From the IMG/VR virus record IMGVR_UViG_2671180986_000013: a stretch of DNA of 5,079 nucleotides; one strand, written 5' to 3'. The number at the start of each line of letters is the position of its first letter. The first letter of the stretch is position 1. Made by a program: the position numbers and the translations under genes. The notes beneath the pieces were generated by a model. It saw only the letters and a program-made list of their open reading frames with translations. It was not told the origin of the DNA and did no database searches. The stretch is from a virus. Lineage: Duplodnaviria; Heunggongvirae; Uroviricota; Caudoviricetes. This document shows positions 13 to 4,130 of this stretch, piece after piece.

Positions 13-2511
13 TTAAGCGCAGCTATTTAGTGAATTAAGTAAATTAGTCAGTGACCTTGTAAAGTCTGTTAAACCTTCCTGTGAACCATCGAACATTAAG
101 GCCAGATTATTATTCCATGAATTACTTAAGCGGCCTAACTGCGTCTGAGTAGAGTTAATAATCTTTTCCCATCCACCAGCTTTATCAATCATCCTTCCCA
201 TTTCAGCGGATACTTTAGGAAGAACATCTTTAGAAAGAACCTTACCGTCTTTCATGGCCTTGTCTAATTCTTCCGTAGTCATCCCAAGACTTCTGGCAAA
301 TAACTGAAAAGCACCTGCCATTCTGTCACCTAATTGACCGCGTAGCTCTTCAGCCTGAATCTTTCCTTTAGATGCCATCTGCTCGAAAGCTTTTAAAATC
401 CCGTTAATTTCATCGGTGCTTAGCCCCATTAATCTGGATGTACCAATCACATTAGAAAATAAGGATTCTTTCTGGTCTGCATTCATATCACCAGCACCAG
501 CGGAAAACTTAGCAAAACTGCTTAATGTTTCAATCTGGTCTACACCACTACTATCAGCAAGATTCTTAACAAATTCTGTAGCTCGTTTAGCACCTTCATC
601 ACCTAAAACGAATTGTGCCGCTCGTTGTGATGCTTCTTTTTTCAGACCAACCTCCATAATCCGCCTGTAAGCTTCTAAGGCTGTCTGAAAACTATAAATG
701 GCTGTACCTGCTTTGATTGCACTCGTAGCTAATACATCCAGACTATTTGAAGCATTTTCACTGTGATTATTTTTGCTGGTGGTCTTGTTAAACTTAGAAA
801 GTGTTTCACGAAGAGACTGATTTAACTTTGCTAACTCACGATTAAAAGTTTCGTTTCCAAGTGTCTTGGATTTACTGCTTAAGCTGTAATACTGGCTTTT
901 AAAATACTTCTCAAGCATAGGATTAAAGTCACGAAGCTTGCTCATATTCGCTGAGTAAGCTGCTGTGATTGCTCTGCTTCCGCTAATTCGTGGCTGTCTT
1001 GGTTGTCTAAGTGGCTTTAAAGTATCCTCAATTTCAGTTTTAATCTTAAACGCTCTAGTGTTTTTAAGACGCTGCTCAATCTTGGAAACAGTTTTATCGA
1101 CATTTCTTTCCATTAGTTTGAGAGAATCATTTAAAGGCGTAGGATTAACTCTAAACGACTTATTCAATCGCTTCTCAATTCGTGATGCTACCTGCATCGT
1201 TTGTTTCTCGGCTTTTTCCAAGCCTTTTAAAACTTTCTGAGAGTTAAAACTTNNNNNNNNNNNNNNNNNNNNNNNNNNNNNNNNNNNNNNNNNNNNNNNN
1301 NNNNNNNNNNNNNNNNNNNNNNNNNNNNNNNNNNNNNNNNNNNNNNNNNNNNNNNNNNNNNNNNNNNNNNNNNNNNNNNNNNNNNNNNNNNNNNNNNNNN
1401 NNNNNNNNNNNNNNNNNNNNNNNNNNNNNNNNNNNNNNNNNNNNNNNNNNNNNNNNNNNNNNNNNNNNNNNNNNNNNNNNNNNNNNNNNNNNNNNNNNNN
1501 NNNNNNNNNNNNNNNNNNNNNNNNNNNNNNNNNNNNNNNNNNNNNNNNNNNNNNNNNNNNNNNNNNNNNNNNNNNNNNNNNNNNNNNNNNNNNNNNNNNN
1601 NNNNNNNNNNNNNNNNNNNNNNNNNNNNNNNNNNNNNNNNNNNNNNNNNNNNNNNNNNNNNNNNNNNNNNNNNNNNNNNNNNNNNNNNNNNNNNNNNNNN
1701 NNNNNNNNNNNNNNNNNNNNNNNNNNNNNNNNNNNNNNNNNNNNNNNNNNNNNNNNNNNNNNNNNNNNNNNNNNNNNNNNNNNNNNNNNNNNNNNNNNNN
1801 NNNNNNNNNNNNNNNNNNNNNNNNNNNNNNNNNNNNNNNNNNNNNNNNNNNNNNNNNNNNNNNNNNNNNNNNNNNNNNNNNNNNNNNNNNNNNNNNNNNN
1901 NNNNNNNNNNNNNGTTCTTTTTTAAGCTTTTGCTTTAACTTATCCAGTTTACCGGAATAATGCTTAGTCAAATTAGCTTCAGCTAACTGAAGAATCTCTT
2001 CATCTGTTTTATCAGTCATCAGAATAAATTGACCAGAACCCCTTAATGCTTGTCTGACATCAATTAACCGGAACCCTTCAGGGATACTTTGAAGAACTTT
2101 AGGAACGTCTTCAATCGCTGTACCAAAACCATCATTAAAGTTTCCTTCATAATAGATAAACGGGTTTGACTTAATCTCGTAAGCAATATCATATTCTGAA
2201 GGTTTCGAGGTTTCTTCGAAGTTCTTAACAGCATCGTAAGCGACATCAAGTCTAAGACGCTGTGATTTTAAAGCTGGGTAATATTCACGCTCAAGCTCAA
2301 ATAGTGCTTCAGTTTTGCAGATATCAGGCATTTCTTGAGGCTCAGGAGACACAAAGGAAATTACCTTTGGTGACATCTTTAGCTCTTGCTCAAGCTCAAT
2401 GCGCTTGTCATGCTCTTGACGCTGAATAGTATGTAGCGGATGTTCACCCTGTGGTGACCAGTCTCCGAAGCTATCAACCTTTTTACCGTTAATATATAAA
2501 TCGTTTGTCAT
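13..2511 (-). CDS. putative phage tail tape-measure-domain protein (832 codons as represented; interior masked by N)
   Basis: Longest ORF in the window. ATG at 2511..2509 is preceded by GAGGA (plus 2519..2523) with a 7-nt spacer; stop TAA at 15..13. The C-terminal region (about residues 690-790: ...GILKAFEQMASKGKIQAEELRGQLGDRMAGAFQLFARSLGMTTEELDKAMKDGKVLSKDVL...) matches, from memory, the conserved tape-measure domain pattern of phage TMPs; upstream of it are K/E/Q-rich coiled-coil-like stretches. At both edges of the N run only this frame is open, and the two edges are in the same phase for a 661-nt gap, so a single ORF is plausible but a gene boundary inside the gap cannot be excluded. Confidence 0.55.
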   Translation of the reverse strand: MTNDLYINGKKVDSFGDWSPQGEHPLHTIQRQEHDKRIELEQELKMSPKVISFVSPEPQEMPDICKTEALFELEREYYPALKSQRLRLDVAYDAVKNFEETSKPSEYDIAYEIKSNPFIYYEGNFNDGFGTAIEDVPKVLQSIPEGFRLIDVRQALRGSGQFILMTDKTDEEILQLAEANLTKHYSGKLDKLKQKLKKEXXXXXXXXXXXXXXXXXXXXXXXXXXXXXXXXXXXXXXXXXXXXXXXXXXXXXXXXXXXXXXXXXXXXXXXXXXXXXXXXXXXXXXXXXXXXXXXXXXXXXXXXXXXXXXXXXXXXXXXXXXXXXXXXXXXXXXXXXXXXXXXXXXXXXXXXXXXXXXXXXXXXXXXXXXXXXXXXXXXXXXXXXXXXXXXXXXXXXXXXXXXXXXXXXXXXXXXXXXXXXSFNSQKVLKGLEKAEKQTMQVASRIEKRLNKSFRVNPTPLNDSLKLMERNVDKTVSKIEQRLKNTRAFKIKTEIEDTLKPLRQPRQPRISGSRAITAAYSANMSKLRDFNPMLEKYFKSQYYSLSSKSKTLGNETFNRELAKLNQSLRETLSKFNKTTSKNNHSENASNSLDVLATSAIKAGTAIYSFQTALEAYRRIMEVGLKKEASQRAAQFVLGDEGAKRATEFVKNLADSSGVDQIETLSSFAKFSAGAGDMNADQKESLFSNVIGTSRLMGLSTDEINGILKAFEQMASKGKIQAEELRGQLGDRMAGAFQLFARSLGMTTEELDKAMKDGKVLSKDVLPKVSAEMGRMIDKAGGWEKIINSTQTQLGRLSNSWNNNLALMFDGSQEGLTDFTRSLTNLLNSLNSCA
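1253..1913. other. run of 661 N (masked or unresolved sequence) inside the large ORF
   Basis: Directly visible. Length is not a multiple of 3, but codon phase is preserved across it in the only open frame, which suggests exact-length masking rather than an arbitrary assembly gap. Confidence 0.99.
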
Positions 2512-2535
2512 TATAATTTCCTCTAAGTGTGGTTA

Positions 2536-2550
2536 TTTCTTAATAGAGCA
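2536..2550. repeat. inverted copy of the 15-mer TGCTCTATTAAGAAA that heads each A repeat
   Basis: Plus 2536..2550 tttcttaatagagca is the exact reverse complement of plus 2599..2613 and 3201..3215 (tgctctattaagaaa). It lies 25-39 nt upstream of the large ORF start codon, on its coding strand. Confidence 0.8.
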
Positions 2551-2598
2551 CCTTCAACGCCAATACACTTAGAAGATGACTTAACGATTTATTAAAGA

Positions 2599-2719
2599 TG
2601 CTCTATTAAGAAAAGCCCTAAACATAATCTGTGAAGGGCTTTGGAGGTTTGCTTATAACGTTAACGAAGTTTCAGGAAAACTTTCTTTAAAAGCTCTGTT
2701 TAAAAACTCTTAAAGAAAG
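2599..2719. repeat. direct repeat A, copy 1 (121 bp, identical to 3201..3321)
   Basis: Base-by-base comparison of 2599..2719 with 3201..3321 gives 121/121 identity; the copies diverge immediately after (t at 2720, c at 3322). Confidence 0.95.
2605..2642 (-). terminator. candidate rho-independent terminator (minus-strand sense) inside A copy 1
   Basis: Stem aaagccct (2612..2619) pairs with agggcttt (2635..2642) around a 15-nt loop; on the minus strand the GC core GCCCU/AGGGC is followed by UUUUCUU. Short stem, so moderate support. Confidence 0.4.
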
Positions 2720-2749
2720 TTTTCCTGAAACTTCGTTAACGTTATAAGC
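2651..2749. repeat. perfect 40-bp inverted repeat (palindrome) with 19-nt spacer
   Basis: 2651..2690 gcttataacgttaacgaagtttcaggaaaactttctttaa is the exact reverse complement of 2710..2749; loop 2691..2709. The left arm and loop belong to repeat A; the right arm is unique to this copy and is followed directly by 11 N. Confidence 0.9.
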
Positions 2750-2760
2750 NNNNNNNNNNN
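2750..2760. other. run of 11 N abutting the palindrome
   Basis: Directly visible; a single ambiguous base also occurs at 3200 immediately before A copy 2. Confidence 0.99.
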
Positions 2761-2762
2761 GC

Positions 2763-2936
2763 TTAAAAAAAGAACAAATGGTAGTGTCCGCTATTGCCAG
2801 TACACCTCAATGGACCTTTATTTACTTCGTGTGATTCCCGCCAAGCTCTATCAAAAGATTCACGCAAAGTTAATTCGTGAATATCAAGTGCACTTGGTCT
2901 GTGTTCGATAAGCATTTCATGTTCATTTCTAATCAT
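2763..2936 (-). CDS. hypothetical small protein (57 aa)
   Basis: Minus-strand ORF MIRNEHEMLIEHRPSALDIHELTLRESFDRAWRESHEVNKGPLRCTGNSGHYHLFFF, hand-translated (below the ORF-track size cut-off). ATG at 2936..2934 is preceded by AAGGGGTGA with a 5-nt spacer; stop TAA at 2765..2763. A TATAAAT motif sits about 32 nt upstream on the minus strand (plus 2968..2974). No recognisable domain. Confidence 0.35.
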   Translation of the reverse strand: MIRNEHEMLIEHRPSALDIHELTLRESFDRAWRESHEVNKGPLRCTGNSGHYHLFFF

Positions 2937-3040
2937 TCGTTCACCCCTTAGTTTATTTGTTATTTCAATTTATAGAAGCACACTCAGCAATCAGAGGTGA
3001 AGAGTCTGACTGAACAAGAACCTGCCAAGTGTGCTTTTAA

Positions 3041-3075
3041 AAACTGAAAAAGCCCTAAACATTTCTGTGAAGGGC
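3041..3075 (-). terminator. candidate rho-independent terminator (minus-strand sense)
   Basis: Stem gccct (3052..3056) pairs with agggc (3071..3075) around a 14-nt loop aaacatttctgtga; the minus-strand RNA continues UUUUUCAGUUUUU (plus 3041..3051). The loop is nearly identical to the hairpin loop inside repeat A. Confidence 0.5.
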
Positions 3076-3077
3076 AA

Positions 3078-3199
3078 AGGATTCAATAATGAATGAACAA
3101 GAGTACTTTTTGAGATAGCCTCTCAGACTAACCTGAAAGGCCATGACGAAAAGCATTGCACCTTTCCAACTCAGAATATCCATCCATCGGATTATTGAA
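3078..3199. repeat. repeat B, copy 1 (about 122 bp)
   Basis: Aligns with 3351..3471 with one short indel (gagtac vs agac) and three substitutions (t/c at 3129 vs 3400; cat vs tag at 3141..3143 vs 3412..3414). Ends are a 9-bp inverted pair, ttcaataat (3082..3090) and attattgaa (3191..3199). Confidence 0.9.
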
Positions 3200-3200
3200 N

Positions 3201-3321
3201 TGCTCTATTAAGAAAAGCCCTAAACATAATCTGTGAAGGGCTTTGGAGGTTTGCTTATAACGTTAACGAAGTTTCAGGAAAACTTTCTTTAAAAGCTCTG
3301 TTTAAAAACTCTTAAAGAAAG
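3201..3321. repeat. direct repeat A, copy 2 (121 bp, identical to 2599..2719)
   Basis: 121/121 identity with copy 1; contains the same left palindrome arm and loop but only the first 10 nt of the right arm (3312..3321). Confidence 0.95.
3207..3244 (-). terminator. candidate rho-independent terminator (minus-strand sense) inside A copy 2
   Basis: Same hairpin as in A copy 1 (stem 3214..3221 / 3237..3244, 15-nt loop), followed on the minus strand by UUUUCUU. Confidence 0.4.
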
Positions 3322-3341
3322 CCCTAACTCATGATTAGGGC
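3312..3341 (-). terminator. candidate rho-independent terminator (minus-strand sense)
   Basis: Stem gccctaa (3321..3327) pairs with ttagggc (3335..3341) around a 7-nt loop ctcatga; the minus-strand RNA continues UUUCUUUAAG (plus 3312..3320). Confidence 0.5.
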
Positions 3342-3350
3342 AAAGCTGTA

Positions 3351-3471
3351 AAGGATTCAATAATGAATGAACAAAGACTTTTTGAGATAGCCTCTCAGAC
3401 CAACCTGAAAGGCTAGGACGAAAAGCATTGCACCTTTCCAACTCAGAATATCCATCCATCGGATTATTGAA
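3351..3471. repeat. repeat B, copy 2 (about 121 bp)
   Basis: See B copy 1; about 95% identical, with the same 9-bp terminal inverted pair (3355..3363 and 3462..3470). Confidence 0.9.
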
Positions 3472-3497
3472 AGAAAAAATAAGAGAGAATTGCTCTC
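3471..3497 (-). terminator. small hairpin plus U-tract in the first ~30 nt of the predicted transcript (possible attenuator)
   Basis: Minus-strand sequence GGGGAGAGCAAUUCUCUCUUAUUUUUUCUUUC: stem GAGAG/CUCUC (plus 3483..3497) with a 5-nt loop, followed by UUAUUUUUU. The stem is only 5 bp, so support is weak. Confidence 0.3.
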
Positions 3498-3510
3498 CCC
3501 CATATATACA

Positions 3511-3539
3511 ATTATGTCATGCTCAAGGTTGTTTGTCAA
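3511..3539 (-). promoter_or_regulatory. near-consensus sigma70-type promoter (TTGACA, 17-nt spacer, extended -10 TGaCATAAT)
   Basis: Minus strand reads TTGACA (plus 3534..3539), a 17-nt spacer AACAACCTTGAGCATGA, then CATAAT (plus 3511..3516) with TG two bases upstream of the -10; an AT-rich stretch lies upstream of the -35. Predicted start near plus 3503, transcribing toward lower coordinates into the repeats. Confidence 0.55.
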
Positions 3540-3563
3540 CAGCTTTTAACAGATTGGTAACAT

Positions 3564-3629
3564 TTATACTTTAATAGATGCACCTGCAATCATACCAATC
3601 AATACAAAACAGATAATCACCAATTCCAT
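3564..3629 (-). CDS. 21-aa hydrophobic peptide (predicted single transmembrane helix)
   Basis: Hand-translated minus-strand ORF MELVIICFVLIGMIAGASIKV with stop TAA at 3566..3564. Its ATG (3629..3627) shares one base with the TAA stop of the upstream gene (TAATG) and is preceded by AGGTGG with a 7-nt spacer. Too short for the ORF track; coding status is not proven. Confidence 0.4.
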   Translation of the reverse strand: MELVIICFVLIGMIAGASIKV

Positions 3630-3952
3630 TAATGCACCACCTTCGAATCCGTCACCAGAATATTATCGCTATACAAAATTGCTATAGCCGCCTTGAGATA
3701 TTTTTCAGGGCTAACGCTGTATTTGTTCGTTTCTTCGATAATAAGACGCTTCATGTTTGAGTCGGTAACAGGAAACATAAAACGCGGTTCACCAGTTTCA
3801 ATTTCCTGAATAAAGTCTTCAATTTCTTCTGAGTTTTCAGCCATTAGCTTTAGTAATTTATCAAGGTCAATTGATACACCGGAATCAGCGAAAGCCTGCA
3901 CCATCATAGCAGTGTCGCTATCAATGAAAATCTGTAATTCATATTCGTTCAT
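3629..3952 (-). CDS. hypothetical acidic protein (107 aa)
   Basis: ORF-track entry 3629..3985 trimmed to ATG at 3952..3950, which has AAGGAG 9 nt upstream; the track start is a TTG inside a GAGGAGG motif. Product MNEYELQIFIDSDTAMMVQAFADSGVSIDLDKLLKLMAENSEEIEDFIQEIETGEPRF... has roughly 21 acidic versus 10 basic residues. No recognisable domain. Confidence 0.65.
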   Translation of the reverse strand: MNEYELQIFIDSDTAMMVQAFADSGVSIDLDKLLKLMAENSEEIEDFIQEIETGEPRFMFPVTDSNMKRLIIEETNKYSVSPEKYLKAAIAILYSDNILVTDSKVVH

Positions 3953-4130
3953 TTTTAAAATCTCCTTTTTACCAGACCTCCTCAATCGCTCTGTAACGAG
4001 CTAAACAGTCTTTTTCAGGGGTAGCCTGTACAGTGGTATTACCCACCCTAAAATAAGATAGTTTTTTGCGTTAGAATGCGATTGAGAGCGTCTGATAAGC
4101 TGTTTTTCTAATTTCTCTTAAAGTCTCGGA

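Follow-up and report, generated by a model that had tools for sequence, protein, structure and literature searches.

The window analysed here is the whole 5,079-nucleotide (nt) stretch of the IMG/VR virus record IMGVR_UViG_2671180986_000013 (Caudoviricetes), for which the minus strand is the coding strand of all genes. Read in this direction, the part of interest comprises a strong promoter, a sequence of about 120 nt designated B, one or two transcription terminators, and a leader that ends at the gene for a protein of 236 amino acids (aa), followed by genes for tail components. Two copies of B occur in the window, B1 at 3078..3199 and B2 at 3351..3471, both on the minus strand. B is very probably a transcribed and structured RNA, and it represents a so far unannotated RNA family devoid of any Rfam match but of a known kind, i.e., a leader RNA or a small RNA (sRNA).

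Sequence and Boundaries of B

A preliminary description of this DNA had noticed the two copies and stated that they differ by one short indel and three substitutions, which is what the comparison of B1 (3078-3199) with B2 (3351/3352-3471) gives: an identical block of 25 nt, a 2-nt indel, and then a block of 95 nt containing 3 substitutions. A covariance model built from the relatives finds exactly two matches in the window, both on the minus strand and with scores of 144.6 and 143.4 bits, as compared to only 25 and 18 bits for the same model on the plus strand. B2 (covariance-model match at 3353-3472) is the copy of the B RNA body that belongs to the locus itself, and it is collinear with the single B of all relatives. 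The 9-bp inverted repeats described at the ends of both copies are also present, TTCAATAAT occurring at 3082-3090 and 3355-3363, and ATTATTGAA at 3191-3199 and 3463-3471.

Promoter and Modular Structure of the B RNA

The candidate promoter of the B RNA is a sigma-70 promoter located at 3511..3539 on the minus strand, which consists of TTGACA, a 17-nt spacer and a TG-extended CATAAT. It agrees with the consensus at 11 of the 12 positions, in addition to the TG, and is the sole promoter-like site of the minus strand in 2400-3700. Among the unique relatives, TTGACA is found in 96 of 97, the 17-nt spacer and the TGn extension each in all 97, and the CATAAT form of the -10 box in 83; the promoter is accordingly conserved far better than the mosaic RNA located downstream of it. 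In four loci, namely the window and the related loci L015, L123 and L005 (the IMG/VR contig IMGVR_UViG_2869953405_000008), the interval from the upstream gene to the 236-aa gene holds no other strong promoter.

The RNA downstream of this promoter is built up from modules which succeed one another in the order H1 hairpin, linker, 5' arm, optional inserted hairpin, hairpins H2 and H3, the stretch AUCUC(A/G)AAAAG, and 3' arm. The 5'-terminal hairpin H1 (GGGGGAGAG-CAAUU-CUCUC..., 3483..3503, minus strand) is followed in the window by a U-rich linker (3472-3482), and its purine/pyrimidine stem varies yet stays paired among 22 variants. It is not conserved as a terminator, because the U-run that follows it is absent from the other linker variants. 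Depending on the locus, the 5' arm belongs to one of four types (a-d), type a being characterized by (GAUG)n repeats, and the 3' arm carries (CAUU)n repeats and a UUGAAYCC end, except in the rare type d, which has a different 3' arm. The tetranucleotide repeats of the 5' arm (3447-3459 in the window) and of the 3' arm (3362-3372) differ in copy number among the loci, from 2 to 5 copies for (GAUG) and from 1 to 4 copies for (CAUU), the two numbers being uncorrelated. This variation suggests slipped-strand changes inside the RNA gene.

The H2 hairpin, GAAAGGU-GCAAU-GCUUUUC (3420..3438, minus strand), belongs to the predicted fold. Its constancy in the main set of relatives is uninformative, since most of these relatives were collected with the H2 sequence as a search word. 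In homologues reached by other routes, the GCAAU loop is kept and the stem has changed but remains paired, e.g., GAAAAGU/GCUUUUC in L015 and GAGAGU/GCUUUC in L126, which were both found by BLAST, and GUAAGU/GCUUGC in L129, which was found via the neighbouring protein.

The H3 hairpin (3387..3416 in B2, minus strand) displays a widely variable sequence, including at least 3 discrete apical types, in which the pairing is kept. In B1, H2 and H3 are located at 3148-3166 and 3115-3144, respectively. The pairs of H3 were counted gap-free from the base of the stem, the MAFFT alignment being left unused since its gaps fell inside the stem. For the first 10 pairs of 27 unique variants, 267 of the 270 cells are canonical on the minus strand (44 of them G-U pairs), whereas the opposite strand would allow 224 of 270. 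The figure of 267 was not attained by any of 2000 shuffles of the columns, and sliding the register leaves 83-116 canonical cells out of 270. Six positions exhibit two or three types of pairs, including double changes (G-C/A-U, U-G/A-U, A-U/U-A). With this degree of pairing and its 44 G-U pairs, the structure is therefore that of an RNA read from the minus strand.

It had also been proposed that the ends of a B RNA could pair with each other. This holds for the variant occurring in the window, since the predicted minus-strand fold of the two copies pairs their ends, with z-scores of -3.6 and -4.1 (-1.6 and -2.7 for the plus strand), but it is not a general property of the family. A closing stem is predicted in 32 of 36 RNAs with a 5' arm of type a and in 2 of 2 of type d, compared to 6 of 26 of type b and none of 18 of type c. 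The 9-bp terminal inverted repeats are restricted to the 5'-arm type a and are missing from types b and c, which form local hairpins of their own. The 5'-arm and 3'-arm types combine freely, and the general closing in arm types a and c amounts only to UUCAA/UUGAA, i.e., about 5 bp. The 5'-arm type and the type of the downstream protein seemed to be associated (Cramér's V of 0.60), but the association came from rare categories and did not survive inspection.

Each copy of B had been described as followed by a terminator hairpin, and a GC hairpin with a U-run is effectively found both times; the two terminators are, however, distinct modules and not a single hairpin with differing loops. The terminator following B2 (GCCCUAAUCAUGAGUUAGGGC + UUUCUUUAAG) occupies 3311..3341 on the minus strand, with a hairpin detected by scan from 3341 to 3321, and that following B1 (GCCCUUCACAGAAAUGUUUAGGGC + UUUUUCAGUUUUU) occupies 3041..3075 on the same strand, with a hairpin from 3075 to 3052 that was read by eye. 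The latter is identical in L005. Among 103 unique relatives, the B2 type of module occurs in 69 and the B1 type in 3. Whichever of the three downstream module types is present, B is followed by a terminator, as found by scan for the A-type and by eye for the B1-type and type iii.

A coding function of B was rejected, in agreement with the preliminary description: every frame is broken by the indel, by the number of 4-nt repeats and by the length variants of H3, so that the frames shift between the variants, and no ribosome-binding site (RBS) occurs. With respect to the attributes expected from an sRNA gene, B possesses a conserved promoter and a Rho-independent terminator, together with compensatory support for its structure in H3 and H2. 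Of the two options originally envisaged, a small RNA gene or a miniature mobile element, the former is favoured by the conserved promoter and terminator, by the compensatory and G-U-rich pairing of the minus strand, and by the lack of a conserved reading frame.

Distribution of B

The conservation of B, its strand, its structure, its position and its copy number can be followed directly in the relatives. The region composed of the promoter and B was identified in 477 out of 5426 complete Escherichia coli genomes (9%), the number per genome having a median of 1 and never exceeding 3. These E. coli matches, which amount to 526 places, are always chromosomal, and no annotated feature lies beneath them in any of the records listed. 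B also occurs in E. albertii, in a further Escherichia species and in Citrobacter, as well as in 99 metagenome contigs and 13 IMG/VR contigs. A BLAST search of B against the INPHARED phages and the PLSDB plasmids gave no match. In the window, no Rfam match overlaps B at E <= 10, a search of a complete related element against Rfam yielded nothing at E <= 0.1, and ARAGORN found no tRNA or tmRNA in the window. Literature searches found no description of this RNA or of its host element.

In the loci inspected, B is always located between a gene for a protein of 100-107 aa and the gene of the 236-aa family, and this position is kept even in L129, whose 236-aa-family protein is only 27% identical. 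The search for further copies of B, which had been recommended along with that for target-site duplications, revealed neither dispersed copies nor duplications.

Origin of the Second Copy

Runs of N occur at three places in the window, i.e., 1253-1913 (661 N), 2750-2760 (11 N) and 3200 (a single N), and mark it as a scaffolded draft. B1 is carried by a contig of 439 nt (2761-3199), flanked by the 11 N on one side and by the single N on the other. The left end of this contig (2761..2809) is the 49-nt terminus of an insertion sequence (IS) of the IS3 family. Two inverted copies of it, at 100% identity, occur in L005, one of them adjoining IS3-type transposase open reading frames (ORFs), and sequences about 91% identical to it occur in 89 records of Shiga toxin (Stx)-converting phages. 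Since the interior of the IS points left into the 11-N gap, this gap hides at least an IS. Next to the terminus, a homologue of the 236-aa family (2810..2936, minus strand; 203 aa in L005) is represented by its first 42 codons, after which the IS interrupts it; it was assigned to the family by an alignment that includes a close homologue of the L005 protein. On either side of the contig lies a leader unit designated A, as A1 (2599-2719, minus strand) and A2 (3201..3321, minus strand), respectively, which gives the tandem arrangement B1-A2-B2.

This arrangement has no counterpart among the relatives. The B core is present exactly once in the 120 of 120 fetched loci that were found with the B core, the covariance model gives one match per locus in 100 loci (809 kb in total), and none of about 120 related loci contains more than one B, so that the tandem is confined to the window. 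In one multi-copy E. coli genome that was inspected, a single B occurs within the 12-kb locus fetched. Removal of the B1 contig, with A1 overlapped on A2, restores the exact architecture of every relative. Moreover, the segment 2810-3199 is 100% identical to L005, as compared to only 75% for 3350-3980, and A1 matches A2 at 100% across 121 nt, whereas the two B copies carry different terminator modules, besides their 3 substitutions and 2-nt indel. The end of the first contig also consists of a perfect palindrome with 43-bp arms (2651-2749), in which A1 is prolonged by a fold-back extension (2720-2749). The extended palindrome occurs in none of the related loci, and the A2-type junction into the terminator is found in 79 of them; because it is found in no relative, the extension 2720-2749 is, as judged from the sequence, a fold-back assembly artefact that formed on a genuine 13-bp hairpin of unit A. 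Matches of Rfam miRNA models at the palindrome are sub-threshold (52 bits versus a gathering score of 72) and reflect the long hairpin.

It is thus highly likely that B1 originates from a second, paralogous element of the L005 type present in the same genome, and that it was stitched into the window by the scaffolder; the earlier notion of B as a repeated gene is probably wrong. Alternatively, the tandem could be genuine in the source genome and result from the recent acquisition of an L005-type segment by rearrangement or recombination, which would have left two B genes. The scaffolder did set the contigs in this order, presumably via read pairs, and the B1/A2 junction (ATTATTGAA, N, TGCTC) resembles the normal junction between the leader and A (ATTTATTAAAGA, TGCTC), which makes a recombination by microhomology possible. 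The IS end that faces the 11-N gap and the complete identity of A1 with A2, whereas B1 and B2 differ, nonetheless speak against a genuine tandem, as do the L005 identity of the B1 contig, the single B per locus and the fold-back end of A1, and make it improbable. The stitching explanation is itself deduced from the assembled sequence.

Unit A and the Leader of the 236-aa Gene

The second leader unit A2 is composed of a hairpin, an unstructured stretch with CCUCC, and a terminator of its own (3213-3240); the letters of the window from 3201 are TGCTCTATT, and those at 3322 are CCCTAACTCATG. Unit A, along with the A-type terminator that precedes it, is replaced following B by the type iii module in 26 out of 103 relatives. 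The unpaired stretch of unit A (3201-3321 and 2599-2719, minus strand) contains ACCUCCAAA, which resembles the anti-Shine-Dalgarno end of the 16S rRNA.

The leader hairpin and the RBS of the 236-aa gene are located at 2512..2613 on the minus strand, with the start codon at 2509-2511. The 22-bp leader hairpin (z-score -7.2) uses the U-tract of the preceding terminator. Its loop contains UCUUCUAAGUGU (2564-2575), the complement of a stretch, ACACUUAGAGGA, that spans the RBS of the 236-aa gene, and this complementarity suggests a possible pseudoknot or translational lock. As read by eye, the type-iii leader of L123 likewise has complementary anti-Shine-Dalgarno and Shine-Dalgarno stretches, whose sequences are different. 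The same hairpin accounts for what the preliminary description had taken for a degenerate third unit of B at 2566-2598, namely one strand of the hairpin plus its loop. The local alignment of this stretch with B scores 15, compared to a shuffle mean of 15.0 +/- 2.5, 234 of 500 shuffles score at least as well, and the covariance model has no match there, so that the third unit has to be abandoned.

The Host Element and the Neighbouring Genes

The 832-aa ORF that occupies 13..2511 of the window was rejected as a single gene, since its reading passes through the run of 661 N and falsely fuses three genes. In complete related genomes, the equivalent of 13..2511 corresponds to the genes for the 236-aa protein, a protein of 67-71 aa, and the tape measure protein (TMP, about 690 aa).

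These genes belong to a chromosomal element of about 10-17 kb, which integrates by means of a large serine recombinase. The first part of the element comprises, in this order, the genes for a small serine recombinase, a Dam methylase, a 321-aa helix-turn-helix protein and small ORFs, sometimes including an HNH endonuclease, and then B; downstream of B, the 236-aa gene, a 71-aa gene and the genes for the TMP, a Dit-like hub and a large serine recombinase follow. The element is inserted at tonB/yciI, in yecE or near ymdF, and cargo is sometimes present; E. coli A0 34/86 and ECONIH4 are among its carriers. The hub is about 70% identical to a protein encoded beside the TMP in the FelixO1-like myoviruses (Ounavirinae), which are virulent phages, and 299 phage records match it. 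Residues 1-47 of the TMP are 79% identical to the FelixO1-like TMP, and the remaining genes of the element are without a homologue in a FelixO1-like phage. Capsid, terminase and lysis genes are lacking from the element (loci L007, L009 and L127), which is absent from sequenced phages and plasmids. Such an element may be a satellite or a tail-assembly interference element.

The family of the 236-aa protein consists of proteins of 203-249 aa and has only 18 representatives among 1.84 billion proteins, its relatives in public records being also labelled Shigella, Salmonella and E. marmotae. The protein (4672-5382 in L007) and its homologues have no match among Pfam, PHROG, NCBIfam or the sequences of the PDB. 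The AlphaFold2 model (predicted local distance difference test, pLDDT, of 80) consists of a long coiled-coil hairpin plus a small alpha/beta domain, and a Foldseek search of the PDB gave no match at E < 0.1. Most of the NCBI-named records listed designate the protein as a transposase, a label that was rejected as unsupported by family or fold and that looks like a propagated mis-annotation.

Upstream of the promoter, an unannotated 21-aa ORF at 3564-3629 (minus strand) encodes the hydrophobic peptide MELVIICFVLIGMIAGASIKV. Its ATG overlaps the stop codon (TAATG) of the preceding gene for a 107/118-aa protein, and it ends some 25-30 nt ahead of the -35 box of the B promoter. A hydrophobic peptide of 21-25 aa with the same overlap occurs in 116 of 117 related loci, and its residue changes preserve the hydrophobicity. 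This peptide could be a small membrane protein or a toxin-like peptide. In another copy of the element, that of E. coli A0 34/86 (L009), the 2 kb at 20681-22710 contain neither an annotated gene nor an ORF of more than 86 aa, and have no Rfam match. At the equivalent position, from the small recombinase to the small ORFs, the fuller copy L127 holds the Dam methylase and the 321-aa protein, and the stretch of L009 may therefore be decayed.

Proposed Role of B and Alternative Explanations

The transcription of B, the length of its RNA and its gating function were deduced from the arrangement of the locus, as follows. Transcription from the minus strand would begin about 7 nt past the sigma-70 promoter (read from 3539 to 3511) and would produce an RNA of about 190 nt, comprising the 5' hairpin, B with its H2 and H3, and the intrinsic terminator read from 3341 to 3311, and would end in the U-tract behind the hairpin GCCCUAA...UUAGGGC. 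The B unit would form the first part of the leader of a co-oriented operon for the 236-aa protein, the 71-aa protein, the tape measure protein and the Dit-like baseplate hub. The promoter would fire constitutively, most transcripts stopping after B or, in the variant of the window, after unit A. This early stop would both yield a discrete and stable RNA and keep the tail-gene operon off, and the expression of the operon would need the read-through of the terminators and the opening of the RBS-sequestering hairpin. Considered as a whole, the account in which B, present once per element, gates the tail-gene operon as a terminated leader RNA or sRNA is on balance probable. That the gating of the operon is the main role of B is more tentative, and its chances are put a little below even.

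Several points weigh against this account. The ends and the abundance of the RNA are predictions. Among the ORFs of the element, no antiterminator was recognized in Pfam, PHROG or NCBIfam, although some of these ORFs have no function assigned and a helper phage could supply one. A conserved H2 loop and a co-varying H3 are not needed in a plain terminated leader and therefore point to an additional function, which would involve a protein or RNA partner. Searches of the element for cis targets of the loops of H3 and H2, of the conserved single-stranded motifs and of the 3' arm gave nothing consistent, and the complementarity to a complete FelixO1-like phage genome was limited to 13-mers at chance level. 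Finally, in the more distant element L128 (3560-4000), whose neighbouring protein is 42% identical, the promoter TTGACA-17-TGnCATAGT occurs at the same position and is followed by a terminator-rich, unrelated leader in place of B. Since L128 keeps the promoter without B, B is dispensable for the architecture of the locus and is one of several interchangeable leader modules.

Alternatively, B could be a trans-acting sRNA which is expressed from the integrated element and pairs with mRNAs of the host or of a helper phage, the variants of H3 and of the 5' arm serving as specificity determinants; a role as leader would be compatible with it. Several traits of B agree with such an RNA: it has a strong promoter to itself and a 5' stem-loop, an intrinsic terminator with a U-tail comes immediately behind it in every downstream-module variant, and the H2 loop is conserved. 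The occurrence of H3 and the 5' arm as discrete, freely assorting types is as expected of specificity modules. Satellite-encoded sRNAs acting on helper phages do exist, as exemplified by SviR from the phage-inducible chromosomal island-like element (PLE). However, no conserved or co-varying complementary site of at least 10 nt was found in the element, the predicted duplexes with the start regions of the two neighbours, the upstream peptide and the downstream gene, are energetically no better than those of shuffled sequences (z of about +0.5), no complementarity of at least 14 nt to the FelixO1-like phage mistaenkt was detected, the 13-mers being at chance level, and the variable parts of B are stems rather than obvious single-stranded seeds. 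A trans-acting sRNA is accordingly regarded as rather unlikely. Processive antitermination in cis, as performed by the put RNAs of HK022, has been assigned a still lower probability: the nascent H2-H3 would bind RNA polymerase and allow the read-through into the operon, and B does consist of two adjacent conserved stem-loops located just past a strong promoter and ahead of one or two terminators and an operon, but the terminator that immediately follows B in all module types fits a discrete RNA better, and the sequence of H3 varies far beyond the expectation for a polymerase-binding surface.

Readings that dispense with the RNA fare worse. The conserved intergenic position of B in a mobile element and the short ORFs that cross it might indicate a site that acts at the DNA level, e.g., for a recombinase, for the origin of replication or for packaging, or else a small protein. 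Either is very improbable, considering that the opposite strand, or a DNA cruciform, would have A-C mismatches in place of the 44 G-U pairs of H3, and that the 4-nt repeat number and the indels shift every frame between variants, in addition to the missing RBS. A miniature inverted-repeat transposable element (MITE), the mobile option of the preliminary description, would explain the 9-bp inverted repeats that end both copies of the window, but these repeats are not conserved in the arm types b and c, and the G-U pairing is strand-specific at the RNA level. B occurs as one copy per element at a single fixed position, with no more than 3 copies per genome and none in plasmids or phages, and it is flanked by unlike letters, AAGGA to the left and AGAAA or N to the right. 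In the absence of dispersed copies and of target-site duplications, B is therefore not a MITE, an interpretation whose remaining probability is close to nil. A type III toxin-antitoxin system of the ToxIN-like kind was also considered and rejected: B is single-copy in all relatives and forms no tandem array, and the 236-aa protein has no family or fold match.

Beyond the gating of the operon by a terminated leader RNA or sRNA, one may imagine B as the specificity or immunity RNA of undescribed PLE-like satellites or tail-interference elements which would parasitise virulent FelixO1-like phages, a proposal that is speculative and for the time being improbable. A decoy TMP/hub operon would then remain silent until infection, and the freely recombining H3, 5'-arm and 4-nt repeat modules would define the helper or the competitor that is recognized.

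Likeness to Known Systems

The closest parallels to B are found among the leader RNAs of phages and satellites. In the B locus as in the pR'-6S RNA-tR' region of phage lambda, a promoter that is strong and constitutive is followed by an RNA that terminates after about 190 nt and then by co-oriented structural genes, here for the tail, before which no further promoter is recognisable; as in the Q-type organization, a terminated leader lies between a constitutive-type promoter and late structural genes. It differs from the late leader of lambda in that no Q-like gene or qut site was recognized and no sequence similarity occurs, and in that the B leader has two terminators and an RBS-sequestering hairpin, and the body of B conserved, co-varying hairpins. 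The 6S RNA of lambda is not known to require such hairpins.

The CI RNA of P4 and the c4 RNA of P1/P7 (Rfam C4, RF01695) are also small structured leader RNAs of a constitutive operon, which act in premature termination and exist as discrete variants, and the setting of the P4 CI RNA, an 11-kb satellite or prophage, is comparable. B, in contrast, has no Rfam match at E <= 10, shows no evidence of processing, and possesses neither complementary target boxes in its leader nor complementary 10-mers tracking the type of H3. With the put RNAs of HK022, B shares the two-stem-loop RNA located just past the promoter and before the terminators, a likeness in architecture only, and differs from them by its own terminator directly after. 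The PLE of Vibrio cholerae resides in the chromosome, encodes a large serine recombinase, is related to a virulent myovirus, and specifies a non-coding RNA, the sRNA SviR. The element of B resembles it in all four respects; no gene is shared beyond the recombinase class, and the satellite behaviour of the B element is hypothetical. Finally, the enterobacterial repetitive intergenic consensus (ERIC), the repetitive extragenic palindromes and bacterial interspersed mosaic elements (REP/BIME) and the Correia-type repeats resemble B in size (about 120 nt), terminal inverted repeats, intergenic location and the ability to fold when transcribed, but B is single-copy at a fixed locus, with its own promoter and terminator and no target-site duplication.

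Significance

Approximately one in 11 complete E. coli genomes, together with many gut metagenomes, carries a unit made of a promoter, an RNA and a terminator which is devoid of annotation in the RefSeq records listed or inspected, and B would be an easy new model for Rfam and for genome annotation. The window also illustrates that near-identical "tandem repeats" split by N in draft scaffolds can be stitched paralogues. In addition, B offers a handle on an uncharacterised serine-recombinase element with a FelixO1-like TMP and hub and a variable cargo. The phages concerned find use in therapy and in the typing of Salmonella, and the element may be either their satellite or a defence against them; the interest of B would increase if its host element is truly a satellite or tail-interference system directed against FelixO1-like phages.

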